From an uncultured Gammaproteobacteria bacterium (GTDB lineage: Bacteria > Patescibacteriota > Microgenomatia > 2-02-FULL-39-11): a stretch of 64,000 nucleotides of DNA. The stretch's first letter is position 1. Each line of letters starts with the position of its first letter. The notes under the pieces were generated by a model that made no database searches, was not told the origin of the DNA, and was given only the letters and a program-made list of their open reading frames with translations. The stretch is from NCBI GenBank assembly GCA_964354025.1, contig CAYGXQ010000003.1:16888-80887 (forward strand), written 5' to 3'. The position numbers and the translations under genes are program-made. Below, one piece after another: positions 6,544-57,222 of the stretch.

Positions 6544-6663
6544 AAGATTTTATTTTATCTTGACCACTTTTTTGAATGATTCAACGAATCACTTTCCGCT
6601 AGATTTTTGATTATTTAATCCGGCCGTTTGCAGTTTACCTTTCTCGTGATAAAATATCAGTAT

Positions 6664-12310: not shown

Positions 12311-12354
12311 CTACAAGCATGCTAACTGCTGGTAGTAAACCACTTGTAGTAAAG
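12310..12354. repeat. Palindromic REP-like element, family 2 (ACTACAAGC...CTTGTAGTAAA), directly after the rplY stop
   Basis: Inverted repeat CTACAAG/CTTGTAG; second locus at 55444-55502. Confidence 0.45.
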
Positions 12355-20902: not shown

Positions 20903-21544
20903 CTACTTCATAACGGTAATTCTCTTAAGACCTTCGATGATAGCCTGACTGATTAAATCTTCCAGTAATAATAAATTGCCTTCATCTGCTTCCCGCATGG
21001 CTTTAATATATTTTTTCCTGTCAGTTCCTGTTTCCGCTTTTATTTCAATCGTCGGTAATCCAAGCTTAAGAAGAAGGAGAATGGTTAGCATACGGGCAGT
21101 TCTACCGTTGTAATCCTGGAAAGGATGAATAAAAACAAATTTATGTTGGAACCAGGCAAGAAGTTTTACTGCCTCGAGTATGTATTTATCTGCTTTAGGA
21201 TCTGGTAAATGCTTTAATCTTTCCTCCAAATCTTCATAGAAATTTACCATAAGTTCAGGTATCTTAAAATATGGCGTAGCTTCTTTTCCGGAAATTGTCA
21301 CTTGTATTTTTCTGAATTTACCAGCCCATTTTGGGAATATCCAGCCGAATGATATTGCATGCAATTTACAAATAAATTCTGGAGTTATTCTGACAGCTTT
21401 GTTTTTCTTTACTTGCTGACGGATGAAATCCAACCCCTTTTTTGTTCCTTCAATTTCAAGTTTAAGCAGTTTCGATCGGGGAATAATACCGAAAGCTGAT
21501 TCTTTATACGAAGTTGCGTCCTTTGGTTTCGTTGCGGCTTTCAT
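20903..21544 (-). CDS. Class I Fic-domain toxin (AMPylator family)
   Basis: Fic motif HPFQDYNGRTAR; no intrinsic inhibitory helix; coupled upstream small ORF. Confidence 0.8.
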   Translation of the reverse strand: MKAATKPKDATSYKESAFGIIPRSKLLKLEIEGTKKGLDFIRQQVKKNKAVRITPEFICKLHAISFGWIFPKWAGKFRKIQVTISGKEATPYFKIPELMVNFYEDLEERLKHLPDPKADKYILEAVKLLAWFQHKFVFIHPFQDYNGRTARMLTILLLLKLGLPTIEIKAETGTDRKKYIKAMREADEGNLLLLEDLISQAIIEGLKRITVMK

Positions 21545-21732
21545 TTATATAATCGAGAAATCATCTTGCGGGTGACAGGTTCTCCTTCAAGCTTAGTGGT
21601 GCGAAAGATAATTTCTGGGATCAGGACACGAAAAAATCCCAACACGTTTTTTCTTTTCTTAGCAGTGCGGTATTTAGAATATGCCTGTAATAGTATATTT
21701 CTATTCTTTTTACTCATATCTAAAGTATACAA
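21541..21732 (-). CDS. Putative Fic antitoxin (FicA/VbhA-like), 63 aa
   Basis: Carries the [ST]xxxE[GN] inhibitory motif (TTKLEG); ATGA overlap with the Fic gene. Confidence 0.55.
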   Translation of the reverse strand: MYTLDMSKKNRNILLQAYSKYRTAKKRKNVLGFFRVLIPEIIFRTTKLEGEPVTRKMISRLYK

Positions 21733-21831: not shown

Positions 21832-22485
21832 ATGCAAGCAGAAGAACAAGATAAATTAGCACGAGTCGTACCATCAGTACCAGAACCTGTTGAAGAAACA
21901 CAAAAAGACGCATTAACATTATTGGGTGAAGCCGTAGCAGCTACAGCGGTTTCTGAAGAAGAAAAAGCTTTAGCTCAAGCATTAATAACTAGACAACAAG
22001 CACTAAAAGCAGAATGGCAAGCTAAAATAACCCAAGGATTAGCCAAAGGAGAGATAAACGGTATCATAGTTTCTGATCTTCATGGTGCTTTAATGGCTGC
22101 AAATATACCAGCAAGCGGTGGACCAACACCAATTGAATTTAGAGCTGATGAAGAAGCGGGGGGCAAACCATTTTTTAAACAAGCATACATTCAATTTCCA
22201 TTATTAGAAGCGATGACGGTTGGTGATGAACAACATAGGTGTATGGTTCAACCGTCTGAAGAATTTCAAGATAGAGTATTAAAACAGCTTGGAGCCTATT
22301 CTGGAGAAAATAAACCAGTTTGGGCGGCTCAGCATGATGCAAAAGGCGGAATGGTTGAACGTGTCCCAACCTCACTAGCTGGAGTAGAATTATCTGCGAA
22401 TATTATTGGAAGTGCTGGTGGTTTTTCTATTAGTACAAAACTAAACGAAGCAGCGTTTGGTAAAGCTATAGGTGTTCCTCACTAA
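21832..22485 (+). CDS. Hypothetical protein with foreign codon usage (A/T-ending codons)
   Basis: ORF; Ala/Glu-rich N-terminus; codon preference differs from neighbours. Confidence 0.45.
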   Translation: MQAEEQDKLARVVPSVPEPVEETQKDALTLLGEAVAATAVSEEEKALAQALITRQQALKAEWQAKITQGLAKGEINGIIVSDLHGALMAANIPASGGPTPIEFRADEEAGGKPFFKQAYIQFPLLEAMTVGDEQHRCMVQPSEEFQDRVLKQLGAYSGENKPVWAAQHDAKGGMVERVPTSLAGVELSANIIGSAGGFSISTKLNEAAFGKAIGVPH

Positions 22486-39987: not shown

Positions 39988-40611
39988 CTATTTCTTTTCA
40001 CTAACAGCTTTCCATAATCGCATTATACCGTAACCAATTAGTAGACAGCCTACAATTCCATTTAAAAATTTAACTAATAAAATCGGAACCGCTTCCCTGA
40101 CAAGAGAAAATATAATTACGGAAGAGCCCATAAAAATAAATGTGGCTAAACCAGTTCCTATACCAAACAATAATAATTCTCTTTTAGAATAACCATATTC
40201 AACTGCTTTGGAGGTAATCAAACTGGTGAAGAAAACGATAGTCATTGGACTGGATATTGTTAATAAAAATACTGATGTGAAGCTTGTGATGATGCTGGAA
40301 CCCCCTGTCGTCACTGTGTTTGAAGCGTTTCCAATAATTGCTCCCTTTAGTATTAAATATCCGAATGCTGACAACACCAATGAACTGATTATCCCGAATA
40401 TCTTTTTGAACTTTTTGTGTTCAAGTAATTTTCCTATACCGAAAATTGCCAACGATATATACAGATAATCAACAGTGGTAACAGCAAATACACCCGCTAA
40501 ACCATCCAAAAATGTCTTCTGAAGTGCCAAATTAACGATAAAGAAAAAAACAGGTCCAATAGCCAATTGAAGTGTTAGTCCAGTTAATAGACCATTTTTA
40601 AGTTCTTTCAT
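39988..40611 (-). CDS. LysE/RhtB-family amino-acid exporter
   Basis: 6-TM, LTLQLAIGPV N-terminal motif. Confidence 0.55.
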   Translation of the reverse strand: MKELKNGLLTGLTLQLAIGPVFFFIVNLALQKTFLDGLAGVFAVTTVDYLYISLAIFGIGKLLEHKKFKKIFGIISSLVLSAFGYLILKGAIIGNASNTVTTGGSSIITSFTSVFLLTISSPMTIVFFTSLITSKAVEYGYSKRELLLFGIGTGLATFIFMGSSVIIFSLVREAVPILLVKFLNGIVGCLLIGYGIMRLWKAVSEKK

Positions 40612-40714
40612 AAATAACTCTATTGCTGAGTAAGTATTGCCAGTGTAGCTTTAACAGAAGAATTATCAGTATTTATTAGCTTCACCCTGCCTTTAAAACG
40701 ATTACGAAGCGGGG

Positions 40715-40885
40715 TCAAAAATTCATCTGCCATGAGGGAGTCAGTACAAATACCTCAGCAAAATCAACCACCACTTCCTCATTTTCCGGAATGTCCTTGA
40801 GCACCGGTTAAAAAGCTAATAATGCTTCTTTTTCTGAAGGACGGGAAACTAAGGTAGTGCCAAATTTTTTCAACTGTATAATCAT
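40715..40885 (-). pseudogene. Degraded MazE/PemI (AbrB-fold) antitoxin remnant with in-frame TAA
   Basis: MIIQLKKFGTTLVSRPSEKEALLAF*PVLKDIPENEEVVVDF resembles Kis/PemI N-terminal and C-terminal segments. Confidence 0.3.
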
Positions 40886-40969
40886 ATTACATCCTCTCTT
40901 TTATTTTAACTTATCAATCTCAACTTATACAGTCTGTAAAAGATCCTGGAAAAGAGATGGTAAAATTAG

Positions 40970-41248
40970 ATGATGGTTGCCAGATGGTCGGGGAAAGTGA
41001 CTAAAAATAGTATTGCTCTTGACCTGGAAGAGGGCGTTTTTACTTGGGATAATCCCCGTAAAATTGCCCAAAGTTTGAAACAATCAGCGCTAAACAGTAC
41101 CAGAAGAAAAACCAATTCCTTCCAATCCGCCATGAGTATGCTGATTTTTTACATCAACCGGGCCGGCAAGAATTTAAGACCCGAAAGAAGGAAAATCCTC
41201 AAGCAGGCTAAAATTGAATTGAGAAAGTTGAAAGATGACTCTTTTTAA
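40970..41248 (+). CDS. DUF3175-like small protein
   Basis: RWSGKVT...DLEEGVFT...SAMSMLIFYINRAGKNL pattern recalled for DUF3175. Confidence 0.5.
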   Translation: MMVARWSGKVTKNSIALDLEEGVFTWDNPRKIAQSLKQSALNSTRRKTNSFQSAMSMLIFYINRAGKNLRPERRKILKQAKIELRKLKDDSF

Positions 41249-41332
41249 ACAGTCTAGATAGAAAATGGTTTATACTCGTTGAGTTGAACGATTTTAGAAC
41301 TTTCAAATTTGTTTAAAATATAAAATAAAGTT

Positions 41333-41824
41333 CTAATTAATTGTAATAAACATCCTATTCAAATAACACGAATTTTCTTCTTTTTCATCATTAGGATATT
41401 TCAATAGGCATTCATTAACTATTTTTAGATCGTTGACCCTTGCTCGGTAACAAATATTAAGGTCGTGTACATATGTAGAATAAATTTTATCAACTTCTTC
41501 ACGTGCCATAAAACATGAACCATCACTCTTCATATTTAAATCACATAACCTTTTTTCAGCCTCAGCTTGTTTATTAGATACCGCACGATAACAATTATCA
41601 AAATTAGCTTCAGAAGGTTTGCTATATCTTGCTATGTATTTTGCTAAGATAGACATTCTATTGTTAAGGAAAAGCCAAACAACCAAGATGGATCCGATAA
41701 TAACAATTACCAGCACCAACAAAGTTATAAAAATAAATAATAACTTACGGATTTTAGATGGTATATTCATAAAACTATTATACCAATATCTAGAGTTAAA
41801 AATAGTGACTTGAGAAATGGTCAT
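41333..41824 (-). CDS. Hypothetical membrane-anchored Cys-rich protein
   Basis: TM plus 6 Cys. Confidence 0.4.
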   Translation of the reverse strand: MTISQVTIFNSRYWYNSFMNIPSKIRKLLFIFITLLVLVIVIIGSILVVWLFLNNRMSILAKYIARYSKPSEANFDNCYRAVSNKQAEAEKRLCDLNMKSDGSCFMAREEVDKIYSTYVHDLNICYRARVNDLKIVNECLLKYPNDEKEENSCYLNRMFITIN

Positions 41825-41990
41825 TATTTAGGATAACTGACTCGTCCGGCCCCGATGTGCTTATTCTTCTATGAATTCCAGCGGGTAGACTACTATTCCA
41901 TAAACGCTTCCCTACAAAGTCCTCTAGTTTCTCCAGCCGGATAGACAGCATATGAAAACAATACCACTATTTGAACGATTAGATGGTTTT

Positions 41991-42224
41991 TCATCTCTTT
42001 TTCCATCTGGGAAGTTTTGGCATCATTTCGTCGGCCATTTTTTGGGCTTCTTCTCTAGTTTTTCCCATCAGTTTCATGGCGGCTCCTATGCTTCCTTCCC
42101 TTACCTGTTCATATGTTTTCAGCGCTCCGGTTTCTTGGTCTTGGCAATAGATACAATATCTTCCATCAAACTTTGACGTTGTTTTCTCATCCAGCGGCAT
42201 TCCGCAACTTTCACATATTTTCAT
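41991..42224 (-). CDS. Zinc-ribbon domain small protein
   Basis: CESCGMPL...YCIYC. Confidence 0.55.
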   Translation of the reverse strand: MKICESCGMPLDEKTTSKFDGRYCIYCQDQETGALKTYEQVREGSIGAAMKLMGKTREEAQKMADEMMPKLPRWKKR

Positions 42225-42515
42225 CGTTTCACCTCCTTGTATATTATTCTAATCTTACTATTTTATCACAAAAAAAGGGGCGTCACGGCACTCCTTATTA
42301 TTTCTTTGCTTCCCCTAGTAGACATGTTCAGGAACAGGAAAGTTGAAATAGAAATCGACATTACTCAAATTAAAACAATTTACGAAAACTTTTGTTTATC
42401 ACAGTTTGCCTAATTTATTGAGTCGCTCCACCAAACGATTATCAAACAATCAAAATATCCTCCGATAAATAGATGTGGGTAATTAAGATAACAACATCGC
42501 CAATTATCCAAAAAA

Positions 42516-43994
42516 ATGTTAAAATCCAATTCAGCAATTATGTCAACGATCATGGAAAGTAAACAAGTTGAACTCGAAAATGTCGAAAATAAAACAATCT
42601 CAGGAAAGGAGCTTTCTAGCGATTTATGGGAAATAATCACTGCCTTCAGCAATGCAGACGGAGGATTAATTTCATTAGGAGTTGACCCGAAGGGTAACAG
42701 GCTTGGAGTAAACCCTGATTTCATAGACAAACTTCAAGCAGATGTGGTTACCCTTTGCGGTAGCGGTTTTAATCATCGGTTGTACCCCGGTATTAGTACC
42801 GATCAGGACAAAGTAATCAATATTTATATCCCACCAGCCCCAGCTCAATATCGCCCTATTTACTCAACTAGTAGAAATCTGCCCCGAGGAGCAAGAGTGC
42901 GTGTTGGAACATCTAATGTACAAGTCGACGATGAATGGATACGTCGCTTTGCGATTTCTGCAAGAGGAGGAGCTGAACTTATGCCTTTTAAAGAGAACTA
43001 TAAAAAATACTTCGACGAAGGTATCATCTCCAAATACTTGGATATTGTAATAAAAAAAAGAGGTCCTGTTTACACTGGGCTATCCATCGATGAAATTTTA
43101 ACAAAGTTAAGAGCAATTACTAATGAAAAAGAGATAACAATGTTCGGACTTTTAGCTTTTAGTAATGCCACAGGTCTACAAGAATTAACAGCACCTACTG
43201 TCAATATTGCAGTTACGCACTATGCGGGTACAAACAAAATTAATCCTGATGATATTGCTGAGGTTTCCTTAGATGACAGAGAATTTTCAGGGAACGTTGT
43301 AAACCAGTTCGAGGAATCATTAAAATTTATAGAATCCAAACTTCCAGCGAGAAGTAGAATTGATACGGAAGGTAAAAGAACAATCTACTTGGCAATACCA
43401 ACTTTGGCACTTAGGGAAACCTTAGCAAACGCAATTGTCCACAGAGATGACACAACTTTCAAAGGTAGAATACAAATTGATATATACAATGACAGGATTG
43501 AATTTGCTAACCCCGGACGTAGTTTAATTCCATTAGAACTGCTTGAAACCGCTCACCCAGAAACAAGAAATCCCCTACTAATGAGTTATATGAGGGACTT
43601 AAACATAACTGAACACAGAGGTAGGGGTATAAGAACAATAAAGGTTTCCCTAAAAGCTGCCGGTCTCGCAGAGCCTACTTTTGTTCACAAACATGATTGG
43701 TTTGTAGCAACAATTTTCAGCTCCGCTTTCATTAAAGACGCCGATCAAGCGTGGTTACAACAATTCCAAAATCAGAAGTTAAACGAACATCAATTTAATG
43801 CCCTCGTTCATGTTAAACATAACCCAAATGGAATCAGCAATTCTGAATACAGAAACCTAAACAATATGACAAACGTCAGAGACGACATCAGGGCTAAAAA
43901 GGAATTAGTTAAGTTAACGAAACTTGAACTATTCAACAAAGTTGGAGAAAAACGTTATCGTCGTTACATACTAAACCCAGAACTAACAGAATAA
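42516..43994 (+). CDS. AlbA_2 (divergent AAA / Schlafen-like) + HATPase_c_4 domain protein (putative ATP-dependent DNA-binding regulator); true start may be the ATG at 42552
   Basis: N-terminal ESKQVELE...ELSSDLWEIITAFSNADGGLISLGV; C-terminal LANAIVHRD...IQIDIYNDRIEFANPG. Confidence 0.65.
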   Translation: MLKSNSAIMSTIMESKQVELENVENKTISGKELSSDLWEIITAFSNADGGLISLGVDPKGNRLGVNPDFIDKLQADVVTLCGSGFNHRLYPGISTDQDKVINIYIPPAPAQYRPIYSTSRNLPRGARVRVGTSNVQVDDEWIRRFAISARGGAELMPFKENYKKYFDEGIISKYLDIVIKKRGPVYTGLSIDEILTKLRAITNEKEITMFGLLAFSNATGLQELTAPTVNIAVTHYAGTNKINPDDIAEVSLDDREFSGNVVNQFEESLKFIESKLPARSRIDTEGKRTIYLAIPTLALRETLANAIVHRDDTTFKGRIQIDIYNDRIEFANPGRSLIPLELLETAHPETRNPLLMSYMRDLNITEHRGRGIRTIKVSLKAAGLAEPTFVHKHDWFVATIFSSAFIKDADQAWLQQFQNQKLNEHQFNALVHVKHNPNGISNSEYRNLNNMTNVRDDIRAKKELVKLTKLELFNKVGEKRYRRYILNPELTE

Positions 43995-44101
43995 TTCTAT
44001 CGACCTTTCTATCGACCCCCTTTTTATGCGTGTAATACCACCAAATGCCCTACAACGTCTTTTAGTCTTCTATCGACCTTTCTATCGACCAACTATCGAC
44101 C
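43995..44101. repeat. Iteron-like direct repeats (5 copies of TATCGACC; 23-nt unit TTCTATCGACCTTTCTATCGACC twice)
   Basis: Seen in sequence immediately after the stop of 42516..43994. Confidence 0.55.
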
Positions 44102-44317
44102 ATATTAAAGAGTCCGATATGATGCGATAAAACCATTCGACACAATCTTAAATTATGCCGATGGTCAACTTTGGCTCGAGAAACGTAGTTTTAATATAAC
44201 CAAGCGATTCCTGCGTATTATAGAGATATTTCAGGACGCTAAGTTTGAGCAACAAAAGACTGGAGATCGAAAAAGTCAAACCCTCTCTTAATTCCTGCAT
44301 AAATTCACGAATAAATC

Positions 44318-44346
44318 TTGACTAATCTTATATAATCTTATATAGT
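44318..44346 (+). promoter_or_regulatory. Promoter TTGACT-N17-TATAGT embedded in palindrome TTGACTA(ATCTTATATA)x2 GTCAA upstream of Fic 44365
   Basis: Seen in sequence. Confidence 0.45.
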
Positions 44347-44364
44347 CAATATATAAGAAAACAT

Positions 44365-45411
44365 ATGAATAAACTAGATTCACGATTAAAAGACATTCAG
44401 ACGGACATCTGGAAAGATATTGCTGCAATTGACGAGTTAAAAGGCAGATGGACGGCTGGTGCCCATTTTCATCCGCAGGTTTTGACCCGGCTAAAACGCT
44501 CCGTTCTAATTACTTCTACGGGAGCATCCACAAGAATAGAAGGAGCAAAATTATCCGATGAGGATATTGAGAAACTGATGAGAGGCATATCAATTGAAAA
44601 ATTTGCTGATAGGGATAAACAGGAGGTAAAAGGATATTTTGAACTGCTGCAAAATGTCTTTAATTCATGGCCAAGTCAAATTTTTAATGAAAGCGCGATT
44701 AAACACTTCCACAAAGAAATGTTGAAGTATGTGGAAAAGGATAAACAGCATAGAGGTAATTATAAAACCATGGAAAACAAGGTGCACATGATAAATGAAA
44801 AAAGCCAATCAATCGGTATTCTATTTAATACAACACCTGCTTACCTGACGCCTATTTATATGCAGGAATTGGTTGAATGGACCGTAAAAGCTTTAAAAGA
44901 AAAGTCTTATCATCCTATCCTTACAATAGGAAATTTCCTTGTTGAATTTCTGCAAATCCATCCGTTTCAGGATGGAAACGGCAGAATATCACGAATCCTG
45001 ACAAACCTTCTTTTACTTAAAGAAGGTTATTTGTATATGCCTTATGTTTCTCATGAGAAATTGATTGAGGATAATAAACCAGATTATTACCTGGCTTTGC
45101 GAAACAGCCAAAAAACATTCAAGACAAAGATTGGCCCATGGCTGCAATTCTTTGTAAAAATCTTGCTTTTACAATCACAAATTGCCGTAGATTTGCTGAC
45201 TTCTGAAACAATAGAAAAAATATTATCGCCAATACAACTAAAAGTATGGAATTATTTTCTGAAAGTAAAACAGGCAGCTCCGCTTGATATATCCAAAAAC
45301 TCCAATGTTGCTAGACCTACGGTTAATCAAGTTCTCTCTAAACTTCTAAAACTCAAGAAAATAGAGCGGATTGGGTTAGGAAGAAGCACAAGATACCGCT
45401 TGATTAAATAA
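44365..45411 (+). CDS. Class II Fic family protein (intramolecular inhibitory helix, C-terminal wHTH)
   Basis: HPFQDGNGRISR Fic motif; STRIEG inhibitory motif. Confidence 0.85.
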   Translation: MNKLDSRLKDIQTDIWKDIAAIDELKGRWTAGAHFHPQVLTRLKRSVLITSTGASTRIEGAKLSDEDIEKLMRGISIEKFADRDKQEVKGYFELLQNVFNSWPSQIFNESAIKHFHKEMLKYVEKDKQHRGNYKTMENKVHMINEKSQSIGILFNTTPAYLTPIYMQELVEWTVKALKEKSYHPILTIGNFLVEFLQIHPFQDGNGRISRILTNLLLLKEGYLYMPYVSHEKLIEDNKPDYYLALRNSQKTFKTKIGPWLQFFVKILLLQSQIAVDLLTSETIEKILSPIQLKVWNYFLKVKQAAPLDISKNSNVARPTVNQVLSKLLKLKKIERIGLGRSTRYRLIK

Positions 45412-45494
45412 GAATTTGAATAAAAATTGGCTTGGTGCCTAAAATGTTAAGTTTATGTAACTGCTTAAAAATCCTATTTTAGTATAATTCAAAC

Positions 45495-46277
45495 ATGAAG
45501 CTCTTAAAATCGAGCAAGTGGAAATTAGCATTTAAGGTAACACCCTTTGTTGCCGTAATTATTCTTCTAAAACTGTTCGCCCATCAGTCAGGTTGGGAAT
45601 TTCTGACACTTAATACTCTTTTCGGGGCTATCATTTCGGCTAATGTATTTTTAGTGGGTTTCTTGATATCCGGAGTATTGGTTGACTATAAAGAGGCAGA
45701 AAAGATTCCGGGAGAGTTATCATGCAGTTTAGAAGTTTTAACCGATGAGTGCTATATCGTTTATAAAAACAAGAAAAGTAAGGCAGCCATAAACTTTATG
45801 AAAACCATTCATGATCTAACTGCATCAGTTATCAAGTGGCTGCATAAAAAAGAAAGAACGGAAACCGTGTTAAACAAAATCACTGGGTTAAACGACCACT
45901 TTTTGGCTCTTGAACCTCTGACACAAGCAAATTTTATCGTTCGCCTGAAAAACGAACAACACAATCTCAGAAGGCTTATCACGAGAATTCATACCATCAG
46001 GGAAACATCATTTAATCCGGCAGGTTATGCCATAGCTGAAATTATCTCGGTAATCTTGTGCATCGGCCTGATATTTACCAAAATAGACCCTTATTATGAA
46101 AGCGTCTTCTTTGTGGCTTTTGTTTCTTTTATCCTTATCTATATGGTGCTTCTTATCAGGGATTTGGATAATCCGTTCGGTTACTACGAAAAAGAAAATT
46201 ACGCTGACGAGGTGTCCTTAAAACCTCTATTTGATTTGGAAAAACGGATACCCCATGATTTGGATAAATTGAAGTAA
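45495..46277 (+). CDS. Hypothetical membrane protein
   Basis: TM helices. Confidence 0.4.
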   Translation: MKLLKSSKWKLAFKVTPFVAVIILLKLFAHQSGWEFLTLNTLFGAIISANVFLVGFLISGVLVDYKEAEKIPGELSCSLEVLTDECYIVYKNKKSKAAINFMKTIHDLTASVIKWLHKKERTETVLNKITGLNDHFLALEPLTQANFIVRLKNEQHNLRRLITRIHTIRETSFNPAGYAIAEIISVILCIGLIFTKIDPYYESVFFVAFVSFILIYMVLLIRDLDNPFGYYEKENYADEVSLKPLFDLEKRIPHDLDKLK

Positions 46278-46480
46278 AACCGTTGCCAACAGCTTCGTAC
46301 AACGCTCTATAATCGCTTTAAACATGCGATTTACCAAAACCTAATGATCAGATAAAGATATTGATACGAACTGTTACTGTATAAAGCTCCCTAATTAATT
46401 TGTAAAACTACTCTCAGTAAACAAACAGCCTATCGAGTTTCCCCGATAAGCTGTTTAATAATCCTTAAAGAAATAAAAGA

Positions 46481-47236
46481 TTATTTCTTTTTTCCTGCAT
46501 TTTCACCAGCTTGAGAATTGGGATTAAATGGTTTCTGTAAGCCTGGAGCTGTTAAAATACCTTTACTTTCTATTCCGCTCTTATATAATTGACAGGCTTT
46601 AGAATCAAGTAATACTGTTACCTTATTATTGAAGGGATCACAATCCACCTGATCTAGTACCCCGTCATTATCTGTATCAAGACTAATTTCATTTACCGAC
46701 ACAGCATCTAAGTACATACCAAATGAATCATCTGCTCCGGTTTCGGTAAATTCAAGGCGTATAACTCCTCCGGTACCCATTCTTGTTACAGTTTCATCTT
46801 TCCAGGCACTTTCACTTGTCCATGATGCTATATGAGTACCAATAGTCTCGTCTCCCCATTTTACAACCATCTGATTGTCCGGCATGTTGTGTCTTGGTAT
46901 CCAGGAATATTTGATTTCATATTTATACCCTAGTTTGGTAGGAATATCCTGATAGATTCTAGTCGGATGATAGGAATCTAACTCGGCATGCTGATTACCT
47001 TCACGGGATATTTGATCAAAGTTGTCTTGGATTTCAAGTAACCCTGTACCATAAGGATCCGGTCTAAGATAGTCAACACTCCACCCAAGGCCTACTGTAC
47101 CAGTTGGAAAAGTATCATACATGTAAACAACGGGCGTTTCAAAACCACCATTAATAACTAGTTCGGCTGCAGAAACGTTGGTGGCAAATACGAAAACTAA
47201 CATTAAACCACCCAAAATTGATAATATTTTATTCAT
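46481..47236 (-). CDS. Secreted protein with jelly-roll-like domain and Ca-binding DTDNDGVLD repeat
   Basis: Signal peptide; ELVINGGFE...GW pattern. Confidence 0.4.
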   Translation of the reverse strand: MNKILSILGGLMLVFVFATNVSAAELVINGGFETPVVYMYDTFPTGTVGLGWSVDYLRPDPYGTGLLEIQDNFDQISREGNQHAELDSYHPTRIYQDIPTKLGYKYEIKYSWIPRHNMPDNQMVVKWGDETIGTHIASWTSESAWKDETVTRMGTGGVIRLEFTETGADDSFGMYLDAVSVNEISLDTDNDGVLDQVDCDPFNNKVTVLLDSKACQLYKSGIESKGILTAPGLQKPFNPNSQAGENAGKKK

Positions 47237-47275
47237 TTATTTCACCTCCTTCCTTTTTCATCCTACTTTTTGCAT

Positions 47276-47310
47276 AAAAAAACCACGACTTTCGTTGTGG
47301 TTTATTTTTA
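47276..47310. terminator. Bidirectional rho-independent terminator (A-run, CCACGAC-TTTC-GTTGTGG, T-run) downstream of tRNA-Asn
   Basis: Hairpin and flanking runs seen in sequence. Confidence 0.55.
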
Positions 47311-47428
47311 TACTGCCCTGTAATATGAATTTTTCATATACTAAAAGGCAGTAGGAATTATATTGTAAGTATAGCTTTTTATTATCAGAACGTCATGTGC
47401 ATGATTAGTGTTCCCTATTAACTAATTG

Positions 47429-47696
47429 CTCCCCCGGGAGGATTCGAACCTCCAACCTTCTTCTTACAAGTAACCTTTCGTTACCGAAAGACTTGGACTA
47501 TCTTATTCCCGATAATATCGGGATCGGGTATATAGTCTCTACACATTTATGATGCGCCGACTGGCGCGTCAATTTAGCTCGGGATAACCCCGATTCAATC
47601 GGGGGTCCCCCGAATTAGCCCGATTTTCCATCCCGATTTTCATCGGGACGCTGCCTTTTTCGACAGGAAGCCGCTCTACCATTGAGCTACAGGGGA
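47429..47696 (-). tRNA. tRNA-Asn(GUU) split by a group I intron; exons 47663-47696 and 47429-47466
   Basis: Spliced product UCCCCUGUAGCUCAAUGGUAGAGCGGCUUCCUGUUAAGAAGAAGGUUGGAGGUUCGAAUCCUCCCGGGGGAG folds as a canonical 72-nt cloverleaf and resembles E. coli tRNA-Asn (U1-A72, G73, loop CUGUUAA). Confidence 0.75.
47467..47662 (-). ncRNA. Group I (IC3-like) self-splicing intron, 196 nt, no ORF
   Basis: Follows exon U35 and ends in G. P1 pairs exon CUGU with intron GCAG; P2 is UCCCGAU-GAAA-AUCGGGA. The GUGUAGAGACUA...AAGAUAGUCC core resembles the Azoarcus tRNA-Ile and Anabaena tRNA-Leu introns. Confidence 0.65.
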
Positions 47697-47931
47697 ACGT
47701 AAGATTCGCCTTTGGCGAATCAACGTTCCACAACGTTTATCCCGATTAATCGGGATATTACGTTGGGAATATTAACGTACGATTGGCATTTTATCATCAA
47801 ATAGAGCATAAATCCACCCCATTATCTGCCGTTGTACATCTGCCTAACTAAATCTGATGGCAAACACTCCATATGGATGAATATTTTTCGGTATTTCCTA
47901 TATGGAGAGTAAGAATAAACAGTATTGAAAC

Positions 47932-49284
47932 TTATATAGTAACTTGATTTTCTACCTTTGTTTGAAATAGTTTTGCAATAGACACAGTATTGGGTATAAA
48001 TATGAATTTTTTCCCTGAATGAATTTTATCCAATAATTGTTTTTTTACTAAAAACATTAAATCTGATCTAGCGGTTTCGTAAGATAATCTGTTAATTGTT
48101 TTATAAGTAGTTATGTCAATAGTTTTATCTCTATTTGCATTCAATTCCTGCAATAGAGATGCTTGTCTTTCATTATATTCACCTAACTGGCCAGCGATCT
48201 TTTGAATAATTTTTTCTTTTTCAAGCTTGGTTTCATAATGGGCTATAAATTCTTTGATTGATAATACAATCGCTTTTAAAGAATAAGATAAAAAATAGGT
48301 TAAATCGTTTTCGTCATGTTCTGCATACAAATATGAATTATCATATTGTATTTTTGATTTTTTGATTATTCTTGAAACAGAAAGATACTGAAACAACCAA
48401 TAATTTTTTCTAAGTAAATACCAGTAAAATAAAGCCCTTGCGGTTCTACCGTTTCCATCTACAAACGGATGAAGATAGGCTAACCAAAAATGTAGAATAC
48501 TCGCTTTAATTACTGGATGAATAAACTCCTCTTCTAACTCATCTGAATTGGCAAAAATTATAAACTTTTCCAATTCTTTCTCCATGATATTGCCGGTCGG
48601 AGGAGTATACACTATTTCTCCGGTTAGCCTGTTTACAATATTTATTCCATCAGAATCAATTCTTAACCTACCGGAGTCAGCGTCATTCTCTAAAGTTCCG
48701 GCAGTAATATTTTTTTGAATATCCAGTAAGATATTTAAATTTAGTTTTAAATCTTTCCAGTCCATCAGTCTCTGCATGACTTGATAATTGTTTATAATCA
48801 TCTGTTCATCTCTGTTTCGGGCTTTTCTTTGGCTTAAAAGCATCTCCTTTGCTATTTTTCTTGAGGTATTTGCACCCTCAATCTGACTTGACGCGATTGC
48901 TTCTTCTGTTAAACTGTTTATTATCATTTGACTTTTTTGGGTAGCAGTTGGTTTCTCAGTAGTAGAACTTAAAAATCCACTCGTGTTAGAATCTATTAAA
49001 CTAAGCTTCTGATACATTGATTTAGTAATTGTAAATCTAAAATTTTGATTATTGCTGCCTCTTACAGGTGTAATTTCTGCGTTAGACATTCTTGAGAACT
49101 TTAAATAAGCCCAAGCTTCTTCTGGAGAAAATCCTTCTGGTATCGGATAGTGTTTGAATTTTTCCCAATAAACATATTCCTTATCAGCTTGCTTCACTAG
49201 TTCTCTTAAGCCATCTGAATGAACGGCTTTTTTTATCAGATCTTCTGTAAAATACCTAACCCAATTTGGTGGTCTAGCAATCAT
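47932..49284 (-). CDS. Class II Fic family protein (450 aa, Fic_N-like N-terminus, C-terminal wHTH)
   Basis: HPFVDGNGRTAR; SSQIEG inhibitory motif. Confidence 0.85.
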   Translation of the reverse strand: MIARPPNWVRYFTEDLIKKAVHSDGLRELVKQADKEYVYWEKFKHYPIPEGFSPEEAWAYLKFSRMSNAEITPVRGSNNQNFRFTITKSMYQKLSLIDSNTSGFLSSTTEKPTATQKSQMIINSLTEEAIASSQIEGANTSRKIAKEMLLSQRKARNRDEQMIINNYQVMQRLMDWKDLKLNLNILLDIQKNITAGTLENDADSGRLRIDSDGINIVNRLTGEIVYTPPTGNIMEKELEKFIIFANSDELEEEFIHPVIKASILHFWLAYLHPFVDGNGRTARALFYWYLLRKNYWLFQYLSVSRIIKKSKIQYDNSYLYAEHDENDLTYFLSYSLKAIVLSIKEFIAHYETKLEKEKIIQKIAGQLGEYNERQASLLQELNANRDKTIDITTYKTINRLSYETARSDLMFLVKKQLLDKIHSGKKFIFIPNTVSIAKLFQTKVENQVTI

Positions 49285-49460
49285 ATTCCTCCTAACTACT
49301 AATTTGCTACTAATTTTTACTAAATTAGTAGTAAGAGTATAACATATAATTTGCCAATTTGCTACTAATTGATACTAGTCTAGTAGTTAATAGCTCTATT
49401 ATTACTGCTTTTGTTAATAATTTGACTATTCGTCAGTAAGGGGTTCGATCTTCTGATATA

Positions 49461-50018
49461 ATGACTCTAAATCCTAACAAAGAAGGTGAGAATATGAAGA
49501 AATGTAAAAGTTGCAAGTCAGAAATTGATTCCAAAGCAACGAAATGCCCACACTGTCGGACAGATCAAAGAATCTGGTTTCGAAGACATCCGATCTTAAC
49601 TTTTTTAATTGTACTTTTTATTGCTCCTTTTATTTTGGCGGGTATGACTGGCTCGTCACCGCCATATAGTAATGGAGGATCAACTACTCCTGTACCGACA
49701 AAACAATCAACTTTTAATGCAGGTGTAAATTTCACCGGTACTCAATTTGTTATCAGCAATCTGGAAAAGTATGCCTGTGAGAATGCGAGGATGAAGGTAA
49801 ATGGAGATTATTCTTTAGACGGTTATAATCTTGAATCTGCTCTAGACTCAACTGTAAAAACAGGAACTGCCACTGTTTACAAAGTCGGAGCAGGGCAATT
49901 TACGAAAGGAGATGGTACAAGATTTAATCCTTTTGCTACCAAACCTCTGAATTTCAGTATTAGCTGTCGGGGCAATAATGAATTAAGTTCTGCTTTTGGA
50001 TACTGGGAGTTTAAGTAA
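49461..50018 (+). CDS. Hypothetical protein: N-terminal zinc ribbon (CKSCKS...CPHC), TM, extracytoplasmic domain
   Basis: Cys pairs and TM. Confidence 0.4.
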   Translation: MTLNPNKEGENMKKCKSCKSEIDSKATKCPHCRTDQRIWFRRHPILTFLIVLFIAPFILAGMTGSSPPYSNGGSTTPVPTKQSTFNAGVNFTGTQFVISNLEKYACENARMKVNGDYSLDGYNLESALDSTVKTGTATVYKVGAGQFTKGDGTRFNPFATKPLNFSISCRGNNELSSAFGYWEFK

Positions 50019-50127
50019 TGTTCCGGAGAGCTTATTATTATTTAAATTAAGATTTTAATTGAGGCTAAATTTTGAAAATATCTGGTGAATTACATAAAAT
50101 AGACATAAGACAAAACTTAACATCCTC

Positions 50128-50166
50128 TTGACAGATGTAAGGAATAGATTGTATAATCCTTACATC
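50128..50166 (+). promoter_or_regulatory. Promoter TTGACA-N18-(TG)TATAAT with 10-bp perfect inverted-repeat operator (GATGTAAGGA / TCCTTACATC) flanking the -10, upstream of Fic 50188
   Basis: Seen in sequence. Confidence 0.5.
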
Positions 50167-50187
50167 TAGTATAAAGATGTTAGGCTT

Positions 50188-51345
50188 ATGAAAATTGGTA
50201 AACTCGTCCAACAACCCAGTGGATATCAGGCATTTATCCCAAACAAGTTCCCTCCAGAGGAGCAGATTGCCCTGAGTTCTAAAACTCAGCAGCTTCACGC
50301 CAAGGCTGCCCTTATGCTGGGGAAGCTAGACGGTATTACCCAGTTATTGCCTGACCTCGATTTCTTCATTTTTATGTACATCCGTAAAGAAGCGGCCCGG
50401 TCAAGTGAGATTGAAGGTACCCAGGCAACTATTATTGATGTCATTAAAAGTGAGGCGCAAATTGAAAGTCGTTTTCCCCAAGATGTCGAGAGAATTGTCC
50501 ACTATATTCATGCGATGGAATATGGCTTAAAACGATTGGAAACTTTGCCGTTATCACTTCGGTTTATTCGGGAAATCCACAAGGTACTGATTAGCGGCAC
50601 TATTGACGCTCCTGGTAAAACACCGGGAGAGTTTAGGACTTCTCAAAACTGGATCGGCGGGGGTTCTCCTAATACTGCCAAATTTGTACCACCAACACAC
50701 GTAGAAATGAATCGATGTCTTGATGATTTTGAAAAGTTTCTGCACGCTACTGACGAATACCCACCACTTATTAAGGCGGCTTTGGCCCATGCCCAATTTG
50801 AGACAATCCACCCTTTCTTAGATGGTAATGGAAGAACAGGACGGCTCCTAACCACTTTTTATCTTTGTAAATTGGGGATTCTTGAGAGGCCAGTTCTTTA
50901 TCTTTCTGAATACTTTTTGAATAATCAAAAGACGTATTACGGATCATTGAATTCATATCATCAAGAAGAGGCTGACATCTCCGGATGGTTGGATTTCTTT
51001 TTAGATGGTGTGGCTATTATTGCTGCTGAAGCGATTGAAGCATCAAAAAAAATTAATGTCTTACGTCAAAAAGATACTATTAAAATTCAATCTTTGGGTC
51101 GAAGAATAAAAACAGGCATGATGGTATTAGAAAATCTCTATAAGCTGCCTATTATTAGTGTGCGAAAAGTTGAAGAATGGACAGAACTTTCTCGTCCTCA
51201 GGCCAACGACTTGGTTAAAAAGCTTGTAGAATTAGGAATTCTTGAACAAAGAGATAAAGATATTGAGTATGGTAGGGAATTTTGGTATAAAAAATATCTG
51301 GATTTGTTTGTAAGCAAAGAAGAAGTTAAAAAATCGAATGAATAA
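50188..51345 (+). CDS. Class II Fic family protein (Fic_N + Fic + wHTH)
   Basis: [12 protein letters not shown]; SSEIEG; GYQAFIP Fic_N motif. Confidence 0.85.
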   Translation: MKIGKLVQQPSGYQAFIPNKFPPEEQIALSSKTQQLHAKAALMLGKLDGITQLLPDLDFFIFMYIRKEAARSSEIEGTQATIIDVIKSEAQIESRFPQDVERIVHYIHAMEYGLKRLETLPLSLRFIREIHKVLISGTIDAPGKTPGEFRTSQNWIGGGSPNTAKFVPPTHVEMNRCLDDFEKFLHATDEYPPLIKAALAHAQFETIHPFLDGNGRTGRLLTTFYLCKLGILERPVLYLSEYFLNNQKTYYGSLNSYHQEEADISGWLDFFLDGVAIIAAEAIEASKKINVLRQKDTIKIQSLGRRIKTGMMVLENLYKLPIISVRKVEEWTELSRPQANDLVKKLVELGILEQRDKDIEYGREFWYKKYLDLFVSKEEVKKSNE

Positions 51346-52066
51346 ACCTGACTTTACCCTCGATAAAATAAAATTTGCATCTGATGGGCCAACATTTGAA
51401 AAAGCCGTAGCTTTGTATGAAAGCGGCAAAGTTATCCAAGTTGAAGAAGGTATCCGATCGTATACAGCCGTTGTTATGGGTACAAAACCATACCGCGTCT
51501 CGGTGGAAGCACAGAATTTTAGATATGCTTATTGTTCTTGTTATCTGGGTAAAAATGACACATATTGTAAACATATGTTGGCTTTGGCAATTTATGTGGT
51601 TCAAGACGGGAGGCCGTTAACCGATAATGATAAGAAACTGATACAAAATCCAGCTTGTAGTGGTAAATTGGGAACTTTATCAGGTAGCGAGCTATCAGCT
51701 ATAAAACATGCAATTTCTACTTCCCTACGTTACATCAAAGCTTATACTGGTCCGTCTCGTACTTGGTTTGCCTATCAAAACTCACTTTTCGAAGGTTGCA
51801 ATCGGCTATCTGCTATTATCTCCGATTTGCCAGTAAGTGTTCAAACAGCTGAGTTGTTGGTTGATATATTGTTGAGATTGGATAAGAAACTATGCACTGG
51901 CGGAGTTGATGACTCGGATGGTGAAGTGGGTGGATTCATTGAAGAAGCGGTGAGCGTGCTACAAGAATTTGTGAAATTGGATCCGAATTGTGTTAACGCT
52001 TTCGATAAGCTGAAAAAAAGAGAGATATGTTTTGGCTGGGAGGAATCTTTGTTGAAAACTTATTGA
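51338..52066 (+). CDS. SWIM zinc-finger domain protein, overlapping the Fic stop by 8 nt
   Basis: CSCYLGKNDTYCKH = CxCx9CxH. Confidence 0.7.
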   Translation: MNKPDFTLDKIKFASDGPTFEKAVALYESGKVIQVEEGIRSYTAVVMGTKPYRVSVEAQNFRYAYCSCYLGKNDTYCKHMLALAIYVVQDGRPLTDNDKKLIQNPACSGKLGTLSGSELSAIKHAISTSLRYIKAYTGPSRTWFAYQNSLFEGCNRLSAIISDLPVSVQTAELLVDILLRLDKKLCTGGVDDSDGEVGGFIEEAVSVLQEFVKLDPNCVNAFDKLKKREICFGWEESLLKTY

Positions 52067-52139
52067 TCAGTGTGCATTCCGGATATTCTAGGTAATTTAT
52101 CCAGATCTAACCAAATTTATCAAAACCGTGCCTGAAAGA

Positions 52140-52376
52140 GAACCGTCCCCTTACACTTACATTAGGTTGGTTTATCAAGAAGAATATTTAGATAAGAAAT
52201 CGGCGTAACAGAGAGAAAAACAGTTAAAAGGTTGGACAAGCGCAAAGAAGAAAGCACTTATTAAAAGAGATATTGGTCATTTGAGAGAACTAAGCAAAGC
52301 AGTTGAGCAGTTCGGCCCTGAGCTCGCTGCCGAAGGGTTTGGCGAAGCCCTCGCGAGGATGAGAAGTTTACAGTGA
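52140..52376 (+). pseudogene. GIY-YIG (UPF0213/YhbQ-like) nuclease remnant: C-terminal half only, with in-frame TAA
   Basis: ...RLVYQEEYLDKKSA*QREKQLKGWTSAKKKALI... matches the conserved C-terminal KLVYyEeF...REKqLKgWsRaKKeaLI; the N-terminal GIY-YIG core is absent. Confidence 0.5.
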
Positions 52377-52387
52377 GCTTGTCGAAC

Positions 52388-52406
52388 TGAATCCTCCCGG
52401 GGGAGC
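52388..52406 (+). repeat. 19-nt copy of the tRNA-Asn 3' end (GAATCCTCCCGGGGGAGCA) in inverted orientation relative to the intact tRNA
   Basis: Identical to the reverse complement of 47428-47446. Confidence 0.6.
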
Positions 52407-52631
52407 AGGTAATCCCAGGGAAAATTAATTATCCCATTACCGAAGTCATACGGTTTGGAAGCGTTAGAGATCAAAAAAGTTTTGTTTACTCTTTCTTTTA
52501 AATCCCTTCTTGCTTTGTTCAAAAGGTATATAACCACACTGCAAAATCAATTTGTAAAGTTGAAATTGCAGGGTACCACATTTTATGATTAGAACTTCTC
52601 ATATCGAATATAATAGTATTATAATTGTTCT

Positions 52632-55623: not shown

Positions 55624-57222
55624 ATGGTAGCTAAAGAAGCTTATCCGTCTCATCTATATCAAATACATCATAAGGATGGAAACTTATCATTTATTGGTGA
55701 TACAAGAAGCGTTAAAAAGGATAGTCCACTGGCTTACAGAAACTCATCAATGCCGATAAGTGATGCAGATTTCGGAGCTAAATTAGATCAAGCTTCATTA
55801 CCTCTCAATAGAGGTACTACCAAAATTATTGGCTGGGGAGGAGACAGTGTGTGCATAAGATTAGGAAATGGGAGCGATCGTTATGCAGCTGTACTAAGAA
55901 GTAATCGAGAACCTGGGAATTGGGATTCTCTTTTGAAACACTGGAGAAGAGAGCAAGAGTCGAATATAATATTTCATCCTCATACTATTCCAGAAGCTTT
56001 AGTAATAGTGAACGGTATAGATGGTCAACCGGCAGTAATGAAAATTGCTCGGGAAGTTACTGGTGCGACGCTATCCGAAGTTTCAAGTTTATATCTGTTT
56101 TTAAACAGAAGGATAATAGAGCAATATATACACTGGAGCAAAACAAATTTAAAAAGATTTTTACATGAGAGAGTAATTACCGATCCTATTGGTCATACTA
56201 ATAGTAATACACTTAAAGCTTTATTCGAAAAATATGGCCTTTTTTTATTCGAATCAAGTAATTTAATGATTGATTTTCAGCATAATAATCTTGTGATGAT
56301 TGATGGTGAGTCAGACGATTTTCGAAACCTTCCACCCCACCGAAAAGTCCAACTATTATCTCGAGCTGTTAATATGGGCGTTAGTATTGGTATTCTTGAG
56401 TTGTTTCAAGGAATACACAAAGTACATGATAGATTGTTTCCTTCTTCTATAGATAAAGAGCAAACTGATAATACTCCTGGTGTAGATCAATTAAAGGAGG
56501 GTTTTGCGGAAACTATTAGGATTCTTGATGATTCACGTCTAAACTACAGAATAGTAGGTTCTTTTGCTGCTGCAGCAACCATTAATGCTGCAGGCGGAAA
56601 TTATTATTTAACCCCGTTTAGAAGAGACAGAACAATTAGAGATATTGACGTATTAGTTTTGGATGGAGATCCGGATAGAGTAGAAAAAGTAAAAAGTGAG
56701 ATTAATTCAAGAAAAAAACAGAATCATTTTTATCCCGAAATCTCATTTGTCATACCCAGAGTGTTTGAGAGAAGCCAAAGTTATGTTGAAAGTAGAGCCT
56801 CTATCTTGCCACTGCTTATCACAAGGATAGCGATGGATTGTTCTGGTAATTTTTACCTAGTTTATGAGGAAAAATATACACAATTACCAATGGACTATTT
56901 AAATCCCATATATAAAACATATGAAGGTGTAGTATTTCCCACTTTAGAGGCAGGGGTACTTGCAGGACTTTATTTAACCAGGATGGGTGTATTTAAATCT
57001 AAAGACATCGAAAAGGTTGCTACTCTTCTAGATTTAACCAAAGCTCAAATCCCAGTAGAATTTCTTGATTTTTCTAGAGTACTAAGAACAAATTGGCCCA
57101 CTCTTTATAGAAATTTTTTAATTAGAGACATTATTCATTATTTTTCAGGGGGACTTTTAAGTAGGGGTATTTATTCATATATAATATCCCGTTTCACTAA
57201 TCGAAATAATAGAAAAAACTAA
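55624..57222 (+). CDS. Hypothetical 532-aa AT-rich protein; C-terminal half has a nucleotidyltransferase-like GS...DID signature, N-terminal half possibly kinase-like
   Basis: VGSFAAAATINAAGG...RDIDVLVLDGD; codon usage unlike neighbours. Confidence 0.4.
   Translation: MVAKEAYPSHLYQIHHKDGNLSFIGDTRSVKKDSPLAYRNSSMPISDADFGAKLDQASLPLNRGTTKIIGWGGDSVCIRLGNGSDRYAAVLRSNREPGNWDSLLKHWRREQESNIIFHPHTIPEALVIVNGIDGQPAVMKIAREVTGATLSEVSSLYLFLNRRIIEQYIHWSKTNLKRFLHERVITDPIGHTNSNTLKALFEKYGLFLFESSNLMIDFQHNNLVMIDGESDDFRNLPPHRKVQLLSRAVNMGVSIGILELFQGIHKVHDRLFPSSIDKEQTDNTPGVDQLKEGFAETIRILDDSRLNYRIVGSFAAAATINAAGGNYYLTPFRRDRTIRDIDVLVLDGDPDRVEKVKSEINSRKKQNHFYPEISFVIPRVFERSQSYVESRASILPLLITRIAMDCSGNFYLVYEEKYTQLPMDYLNPIYKTYEGVVFPTLEAGVLAGLYLTRMGVFKSKDIEKVATLLDLTKAQIPVEFLDFSRVLRTNWPTLYRNFLIRDIIHYFSGGLLSRGIYSYIISRFTNRNNRKN

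Follow-up and report, generated by a model that had tools for sequence, protein, structure and literature searches.

The AT-rich stretch 41250-52410 of the 64,000-nucleotide (nt) window analysed here (the whole stretch of DNA taken from contig CAYGXQ010000003.1) is a real accessory region of a Patescibacteria genome, in which three genes of the Fic family, a gene encoding a SWIM zinc-finger protein and an intron-containing tRNA-Asn gene lie close together. We regard it as probable that this interval is a composite accessory or candidate defence region at tRNA-Asn that was later flipped, with three constituents, namely an islet, a copy of a SWIM module and an inversion. The islet would be a tRNA-integrated segment of 5.9 kb whose integrase has been lost; the promoter, the Fic gene starting at 50188 (Fic50188) and the SWIM gene (together 50088-52066) are one copy of a module that is found across the Patescibacteria. 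The region thereby joins known kinds, the tRNA-linked islet and the defence hotspot, and its SWIM-anchored cargo slot is the part worth follow-up.

The G+C fraction (GC) is 0.366 in 41250-52410 as against 0.427 in the rest of the window, and the mean GC at third codon positions (GC3) is 0.33 for its 11 genes as against 0.45 for the other 54 genes of the window (Mann-Whitney p = 3e-4), which amounts to the atypical composition of a genomic island. A preliminary description of this DNA, made from the sequence alone, had named uniform composition as the observation that would speak against an island, and the GC and GC3 values show the composition to be non-uniform. Its account of AT-rich composition and codon usage thus holds in both measures, but not in its left limit, as the 11-kb window of lowest GC begins at about 39.4 kb and the AT-rich block extends further left than 41250. 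Further AT-rich patches are found at 4-9, 21-22 and 56-57 kb.

The present geometry of the region can be traced through an element of about 32 codons (consensus LEKW..FR.TDWINYLEYPE.TLKE..FL), which in relatives is intact and situated on the opposite strand right after the SWIM gene. In the window its two halves lie at 41809-41842 (+) and 52102-52068 (-) and rejoin exactly, and 41843-52102 is therefore an inverted segment: when 41842 is joined to the reverse complement of 52102, the resulting element aligns with five intact copies with neither gap nor overlap. The left junction (41842/41843) is also contained within an independent Logan contig, L001 (L numbers denote the related loci and contigs that were compared), which is 100% identical over window positions 40188-51932. 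Undoing the inversion renders the promoter-Fic-SWIM unit co-directional with the Trx_3-ArsP genes, as is the case in L105. Cut copies of the element end at the same D|W codon boundary in the window and in L093, and 9 nt away from it in L104. Elsewhere the element, which spans about 95 nt and shows codon-like conservation, often without a start codon, occurs at the ends of defence-candidate cassettes in up to three copies per locus (L083-L120; for example L098:4602-4700 and L091:2430-2528, 8737-8835 and 12248-12346). To judge from its pattern of conservation it looks like a gene fragment. A reading as structured RNA found no support, Rfam giving no match and neither strand showing covarying helices, and an origin as the displaced 3' end of a larger gene was rejected, only one protein of 54 amino acids (aa) being recovered among 5.8 billion proteins.

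With the inversion undone, the tRNA-Asn gene and the perfect 19-nt copy of its 3' end form direct repeats 5.87 kb apart, which bracket the genes for the secreted protein, the bestrophin-like protein, the Fic protein starting at 44365 (Fic44365), the AlbA_2 protein and the Zn_ribbon_2 protein together with the GIY-YIG remnant. As the sequence stands, the copy is inverted relative to the tRNA because of the 10,260-bp inversion, and its chance expectation is estimated at about 2e-3 in 17 kb. An islet of about 5.9 kb would accordingly have integrated into the 3' end of the tRNA-Asn(GUU) gene with duplication of 19 nt, its integrase having since disappeared. Like tRNA-integrated genomic islands, the segment shows a duplication of the tRNA 3' end that includes the discriminator base, a site at the tRNA 3' end (after the inversion is undone), atypical composition and accessory or defence-type cargo. 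Unlike them, it has no integrase next to the att site, no recombinase domain being present in any open reading frame (ORF) between 38 and 55 kb, its repeats are now inverted by the later 10-kb inversion, and its host tRNA is interrupted by a group I intron. In relatives with a tRNA-Asn/SWIM locus, of which the closest has an RpoD only 71% identical to that of the window, no islet gene has a counterpart next to the module. A remnant of about 48 codons at 44112-44255, between the AlbA_2 gene and Fic44365, belongs to a family common in Patescibacteria and shows gene decay inside the islet; that it might be the tail of a serine recombinase was ruled out, as its family comprises small hypothetical proteins only. 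The accessory island around tRNA-Asn of the preliminary description is thus upheld in its atypical composition, tRNA link, stand-alone class II Fic genes and att-type repeat, but not as one simple island.

The tRNA gene itself is concealed by its intron. Whole-window scans with ARAGORN (default settings) and Rfam reported no RNA gene, and the intron mode of ARAGORN miscalls the split tRNA-Asn gene as tRNA-Asp. A narrow Rfam search of a 381-nt stretch matched RF00028 with 65.3 bits (gathering score 50), and removal of 47467-47662 in silico yielded a 73-nt product called as tRNA-Asn(gtt), which together bear out the tRNA-Asn with intron that had been described. The ORF-less intron lies between anticodon bases 2 and 3, is preceded by U and ends in G. 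A homologous intron occupies the same site in L088 and L092, and the tRNA-Asn genes of L102, L105 and L117 are free of it, the intron-less orthologues aligning across the insertion site. Group I introns in the anticodon loop of bacterial tRNAs are known from cyanobacterial tRNA-Leu and Azoarcus tRNA-Ile. The intron described here resembles these in its small size, lack of an ORF, location in the anticodon, U before the 5' splice site, 3' terminal G and variable presence among relatives, and differs from them in its host, tRNA-Asn(GUU), and its insertion between anticodon bases 2 and 3; our literature search found no description of a group I intron at this place in tRNA-Asn(GUU). Group I introns hiding tRNAs in genomes of the candidate phyla radiation (CPR) have received a passing mention (PMC8172020). 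Both standard detectors miss this tRNA because of the intron, so that islands linked to tRNAs may readily escape notice in genomes of this kind.

The SWIM protein has 1668 homologues, the best 120 of which, at 66-87% identity, belong to WWE3, Gottesman-, Roizman-, Levy- and Moranbacteria; in the same relatives RpoD is 64-71% and DnaG 37-45% identical to the window's. Residues C66, C68, C77 and H79 are invariant, and an AlphaFold2 (AF2) model with a predicted local distance difference test score (pLDDT) of 74 combines a zinc-finger sheet with a helical bundle, for which no fold match was obtained beyond the SWIM domain. Searches of viral contigs and of phage and plasmid records did not recover the gene. 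Two Logan assemblies that are 100% identical to the window, L001 (ERR3804374) and L002 (ERR3804373), both end inside the SWIM gene, probably because assembly graphs become tangled at a gene so strongly conserved among co-occurring species.

A survey of the module in 80 metagenome loci and several contigs revealed a recurrent layout, which starts with the 3' end of tRNA-Asn (or with a copy of the ~32-codon element in its place) and continues with a spacer (GAAACAACCACTAAATTACA), a promoter enclosed in a palindrome (ATGTAAGG-N13-CCTTACAT in the relatives), a cargo gene, the SWIM gene and the ~32-codon element. The palindrome is present, whatever the cargo, in 9 of the 13 loci of subfamily A (that of the window's SWIM protein) with enough upstream sequence, and in the more distant subfamily B its half-sites are everted and lie 33-54 nt upstream of SWIM in 10 of 38 loci. 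A tRNA-Asn gene precedes SWIM on the same strand in six distinct lineages, and dnaG-rpoD stand ahead of tRNA-Asn-SWIM in L088, L092, L102 and L105. Homology of the window to L104, L105 and L092 is confined to 50088-52063. The Fic50188-SWIM operon, which had been listed among the genes of the island, is therefore not cargo specific to it, since the same module adjoins tRNA-Asn, and often rpoD, in distant Patescibacteria. A gene order conserved in distant relatives without tRNA linkage had been put forward as evidence against the island; the order of the module is in fact conserved, but it is linked to the tRNA.

The gene directly upstream of SWIM encodes RhuM in 15 loci, Fic in 9, a protein of 142-150 aa in 6 and an AAA_14-DUF4143 protein in 5, and in other loci a helix-turn-helix (HTH) protein of the ArsR type, methyltransferases, radical SAM proteins, HsdS, HsdR, DUF5655, RusA or others. 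It is often separated from SWIM by at most 17 nt or overlaps it; about half of the loci have no tightly coupled partner, and in these the operator stands directly upstream of SWIM. Most of the cargo families match PADLOC defence candidates (Fic, SoFic; RhuM, PDC-S05; AAA_14-DUF4143, PDC-S01; DUF5655, PDC-S18; DUF4209, PDC-S39). Clustering of candidate genes, as in a defence island, is thus seen both in the region, with three SoFic-type genes and the AlbA_2 gene, and in the cargo of related loci, with PDC-S01, S05, S18 and S39. No homologue of the ArsR-type HTH, RhuM or AAA_14 cargo is present in the window, and our literature search found no paper treating SWIM, RhuM and Fic together.

In six loci a Cys-rich protein of 142-149 aa, without any family match, lies between Fic or RhuM and SWIM (for example L092:7514-7954, L102:7559-7987 and L091:7559-8008), which makes it a second recurring component of the module, though one that the window lacks. 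Copper-related genes, encoding CsoR, cupredoxin/DsbD, a P-type ATPase and a Met-rich SHOCT protein, occur a few kb downstream of SWIM in L084, L088, L121, L143 and L147, and in the window ArsP and Trx_3 are encoded near SWIM. A link of SWIM to metal stress is possible.

Comparison of the cargo across lineages points to its mobility. Fic50188 shares 95% aa identity with the Fic proteins of L092 and L105, at a synonymous divergence (dS) of 1.3-1.4, and the RpoD proteins of these loci are 64-65% identical to the window's. Between L092 and L105 the dS of the Fic genes is 0.175 and that of rpoD is saturated (RpoD 68% identical), which implies horizontal transfer of Fic; at the DNA level their SWIM genes agree to about 82%. 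L104 and L105 are about 96% identical in nucleotide sequence from the spacer to SWIM, inside unrelated flanks. On these alignments the promoter-cargo part, and sometimes the whole unit, moves between distant lineages.

All three Fic proteins of the region, as well as the one encoded at 63216, combine the catalytic motif HPFxDGNGRxxR, which conforms to HxFx(D/E)GNGRxxR, with an N-terminal SxxxEG motif on the same chain, which in the three region proteins lies ahead of the Fic core as an inhibitory motif of the (S/T)xxxE(G/N) type; they therefore belong to class II, as had been reported for the three in the region. Fic50188 aligns over its full length with the PADLOC SoFic model (positions 5-358 of 361) and with the solved SoFic chains (2e-33) over residues 38-373, or 38-360, and the proteins encoded at 44365 and 47932 are partially and distantly similar to SoFic (E about 1e-39), the latter bearing an N-terminal extension of 130 aa. 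The NCBIfam SoFic equivalog cutoff was reached by none of them (Fic50188, 161.7 bits against 550). The Fic protein encoded at 20903-21732 has a degenerate catalytic motif (HPFQDYNGRTAR), with Tyr replacing the first Gly of GNG, and its inhibitory motif, TTKLEG, is found on a separate upstream ORF of 63 aa, which therefore places it in class I; the class given earlier to this toxin-antitoxin pair is confirmed. Five Fic genes in 64 kb had been called a striking expansion. The count is correct, but it is not singular: it looks like a habit of the lineage, because relatives also carry multiple Fic genes around this locus. SoFic, the class II Fic AMP-transferase of Shewanella oneidensis (PDB 3EQX/3ZCN), shares with the three region proteins the catalytic motif, the inhibitory motif and a C-terminal winged helix-turn-helix (wHTH), and with Fic50188 a full-length PADLOC match (3.6e-109). 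It differs in that Fic50188 is below the NCBIfam cutoff and is co-transcribed with a SWIM gene rather than accompanied by a 47-aa AS1-like peptide. SoFic has been described as a single-gene abortive-infection system, which in E. coli H397 is counteracted by a downstream 47-aa protein, AS1 (PMC12249575).

The two best sigma-70-like sites within 41-52.7 kb are the promoter at 50128-50157 (TTGACA-N18-TATAAT, 12/12) and that at 44318-44346 (10/12). The preliminary description assigned to each Fic gene a promoter with its own operator-like palindrome, as a sign of possible autoregulation, and palindromes are present at all three places; however, that at 50128-50166 goes with the SWIM gene under any cargo, be it Fic, RhuM or others, and is therefore no Fic-specific operator. 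By analogy with SoFic, each class II Fic protein could be an AMP-transferase that inhibits itself and serves as an abortive-infection toxin encoded by one gene, and each would be transcribed from its own repressible promoter. In the module copy next to the tRNA, a strong sigma-70 promoter in a palindromic operator would drive a swappable cargo gene, here Fic50188, followed by SWIM and the ~32-codon element; in other genomes the same slot is filled by RhuM, Fic with a 146-aa protein, AAA_14-DUF4143 or others, exchanged horizontally between distant lineages. SWIM, the sole constant protein of the module, may bind the conserved palindrome and control the expression of whichever cargo lies in front of it. 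The 10,260-bp inversion, with one breakpoint in the middle of the element, would then have flipped the whole arrangement. We infer the defence function of the Fic proteins, repression at the palindromes and regulation by SWIM from family knowledge and co-occurrence.

These observations raise a more far-reaching and tentative possibility, for which the odds seem to us to be against rather than in favor, that the module is an undescribed tRNA-Asn-anchored cassette platform, in which single defence genes are captured between a fixed palindromic promoter and an ultra-conserved SWIM gene and exchanged across classes, the ~32-codon element serving as recombination site and SWIM as common repressor or sensor, with no recognisable integrase. 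Such a role of the element would fit its cut copies: those of two loci stop at a common D|W boundary, and that of a third stops 9 nt beyond it. Integron gene-cassette platforms likewise place exchangeable cargo of single genes behind one fixed promoter, with a short conserved element at the cassette ends. In contrast to integrons, the window and the annotated genes of related loci showed neither an IntI-type nor any other site-specific integrase, the ~95-nt element that recurs at cassette ends shows no conserved stem-loop or covarying structure, and the platform is tied to a tRNA gene. Defence hotspots and regulators of the BrxR/CapW type offer another parallel: a constant gene with a palindromic operator accompanies many unrelated defence-candidate genes, the content varies between two anchors (here tRNA-Asn and SWIM), and cargo is exchanged horizontally. 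Unlike BrxR and CapW, the constant protein combines a SWIM zinc finger with a helical domain instead of a wHTH-WYL architecture and is encoded downstream of the cargo in the same operon, and its binding to the operator is a prediction. Little is known about how Patescibacteria, with their tiny genomes, dependence on host cells and refractoriness to genetic manipulation, acquire and regulate defence genes. With a conserved slot linked to a tRNA, gene flow and immunity in these organisms could be searched for at a defined place, and such a slot, with interchangeable defence-candidate genes ahead of one constrained SWIM gene, could be tested as a new kind of defence-island regulator or cassette system.

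Several alternatives bear on the composite reading. The preliminary description implied a single classical genomic island of about 11 kb, brought to tRNA-Asn by a tyrosine integrase and carrying three Fic genes and SWIM as cargo, and the low GC throughout, the tRNA linkage, the 19-nt repeat of the tRNA end and the defence-type content all agree with it. We nevertheless think it improbable, because the repeat stands 5' of the tRNA and in inverted orientation to it, the integrase was not found, distant relatives show Fic50188-SWIM in synteny with tRNA-Asn and rpoD, its homology having sharp limits of its own, and the split element reveals an inversion that explains the odd geometry. That inversion might in turn be an assembly artefact, given that the source is an uncultured organism represented by a metagenome-assembled genome and that the conserved SWIM gene does break assemblies such as L001 and L002. 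To this we attach next to no weight: the left junction recurs in an independent contig, and breakpoints exact to 1 nt that yield two complementary halves of one element are not what a chimeric join would produce.

Fic50188 and SWIM could also form a dedicated toxin-antitoxin pair, in which SWIM neutralises Fic and represses the operon through the palindrome, in the manner of SoFic-AS1 or MqsRA. They have the make-up of a two-gene operon, with an 8-nt overlap and a palindromic operator overlapping the promoter, and MqsA, the antitoxin of the toxin-first pair MqsRA, is a zinc-finger protein like SWIM. A downstream antitoxin has moreover been reported for SoFic in E. coli (PMC12249575). Yet nearly identical SWIM proteins are encoded behind unrelated partners (RhuM, a 142-149-aa protein, AAA_14-DUF4143, a methyltransferase), which does not agree with specificity for Fic, about half of the loci have the operator straight upstream of SWIM and no tightly coupled partner, the Fic protein carries its own inhibitory helix, and the other Fic genes of the window have no SWIM partner, so that we hold a dedicated pair to be rather unlikely. 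Finally, SWIM and Fic-wHTH might be housekeeping regulators in a recombination-prone AT-rich stretch near rpoD and tRNA-Asn, with no mobile or defence function. SWIM and Fic50188 are indeed more conserved than RpoD, at ratios of nonsynonymous to synonymous divergence (dN/dS) of about 0.02-0.09, synteny with rpoD extends to four lineages, SWIM is absent from the phage and plasmid collections, and ordinary genes are among its neighbours. This explanation earns little credence from us, since the low Fic dS between L092 and L105 against a saturated rpoD requires horizontal transfer, the spacer-to-SWIM unit occurs in unrelated flanks, the cargo varies among defence-candidate families, and a 19-nt att-type repeat and atypical GC3 are present.

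Against the composite region itself and the role given to SWIM, a number of points have to be set. The dN/dS of Fic50188, about 0.02, indicates very strong purifying selection, and defence genes are not usually constrained in this way. The scan of about half of the window's genes identified neither an integrase nor another recombinase, and none was noticed in related loci, where the module is not flanked by att repeats (no repeat of the tRNA end of 12 nt or more). Apart from the zinc finger, no DNA-binding fold can be recognised in the AF2 model of SWIM; the palindrome of some loci is adjoined by an ArsR-type HTH gene, whose product could be the real binder, and ordinary genes (copper-resistance, MnmA) also adjoin SWIM. 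The closest species representative in GTDB, labelled Patescibacteria, has an RpoD only 71% identical, and synteny of the left part of the region with the closest representatives (RpoD at most 71% identical) does not extend beyond dnaG-rpoD, so that none is near enough to show that part missing between the same flanks. Even with the inversion undone, the SWIM module lies 5' of the tRNA and points away from it, whereas the relatives have it behind the tRNA 3' end; one or more additional rearrangements are therefore needed, and a one-step derivation of the window's order from that of the relatives (tRNA, spacer, promoter, cargo, SWIM) proved impossible.

Table 1. Positions of the features discussed, in window coordinates
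Feature	Position	Strand	Evidence or remark
5' half (LEKWSLFRITD) of ~32-codon element, left inversion breakpoint	41809..41842	+	blastn to L098/L115/L116
Inverted segment, 10,260 bp, breakpoint ambiguous by 1 nt	41843..52102		Element halves rejoin
Zn_ribbon_2 protein, 77 aa, islet cargo	41991..42224	-	Pfam PF12674, E 1.4e-11
AlbA_2 (Schlafen-type) + HATPase_c_4 protein, 492 aa, islet cargo	42516..43994	+	Pfam PF04326, PF13749
Five exact CTATCGACC repeats	43997..44101	+	5 found vs 0.35 expected; repeat family D6
C-terminal remnant of small Patescibacteria hypothetical gene	44112..44255	+	tblastn 60% identity to residues 93-140 of L117:9315-9788
Promoter-like site and palindrome TTGACTA...TAGTCAA, upstream of Fic44365	44318..44346	+	sigma-70-like 10/12
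Class II Fic, C-terminal wHTH, 348 aa	44365..45411	+	Pfam Fic; PADLOC SoFic 8.9e-39; motifs STRIEG (at 55), HPFQDGNGRISR
Membrane protein, weakly bestrophin-like	45495..46277	+	Pfam PF14023, E 1.7e-5, under cutoff
Secreted protein, choice-of-anchor-C/DUF642-like	46481..47236	-	NCBIfam TIGR04362, E 1.9e-6, under cutoff
tRNA-Asn(GUU)	47696..47429	-	Exons 47696-47663 + 47466-47429; in-silico splicing
Group I intron, 196 nt	47662..47467	-	Rfam RF00028 (Intron_gpI) 65.3 bits, E 1.6e-16
Class II Fic, long N-terminal extension, C-terminal HTH, 450 aa	47932..49284	-	Pfam Fic; PADLOC SoFic 2.9e-40; motifs SSQIEG (at 132), HPFVDGNGRTAR
Two copies of a 32-nt unit, each with palindrome CTACTAATTT/AAATTAGTAG	49292..49387		Between divergent genes; repeat family D2
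Zn-ribbon membrane protein, 185 aa	49461..50018	+	Pfam Zn_ribbon_3, weak
Right part of conserved spacer and sigma-70 promoter in palindrome ATGTAAGGA-N13-TCCTTACAT	50088..50187	+	Homology to relatives begins at 50088
SoFic-type class II Fic, 385 aa, swappable SWIM-module cargo	50188..51345	+	Pfam Fic_N+Fic; PADLOC SoFic 3.6e-109; motif SSEIEG (at 72)
SWIM zinc-finger protein, 242 aa, constant module gene	51338..52066	+	Pfam SWIM; start overlaps Fic stop by 8 nt
3' half (WINYLEYPECTL) of ~32-codon element, right inversion breakpoint	52068..52102	-	Comparison with intact copies
Possible GIY-YIG C-terminal remnant with in-frame stop	52103..52290	+	Pfam PF01541, E 0.01, 16.6 bits, profile 47-76, under cutoff
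Perfect 19-nt copy of tRNA-Asn 3' end, attR-like	52389..52407	+	Inverted repeat I8 with 47427-47445

For the remaining features of the region, Pfam searches agree with the earlier gene list, recovering DUF3175, Zn_ribbon_2, AlbA_2+HATPase_c_4, three Fic proteins, a weak bestrophin-like protein, the secreted protein, the Zn-ribbon membrane protein and SWIM. The dnaG-rpoD genes had been named as flanking core genes; at 33.5-36.4 kb they form a left flank, not a right one. The AlbA_2/HATPase_c_4 gene is present as described, and its product has a partial PADLOC match to a pAgo-associated model and a PDB match to 2kyy (a RecG-related N-terminal domain). The iteron-like repeats said to follow it are likewise there, in five copies. 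For the GIY-YIG remnant with an att-like scar, the scar stands, in the form of the 19-nt tRNA copy, but the GIY-YIG match is weak, confined to the C-terminal part and under the cutoff; rebuilding the gene across the second inversion junction gave no better Pfam match and again only the C-terminal part.

Elsewhere in the window, a toxin of the TumE family (PF20126) is encoded at 6628-7328 in an AT-rich patch (GC 0.30-0.32), with a likely partner ORF overlapping it upstream. Two genes, at 55624-57222 and 21832-22485, stand out from normal surroundings by extreme GC3 values (0.23 and 0.17) and have no Pfam match; they are candidates for additional foreign DNA.

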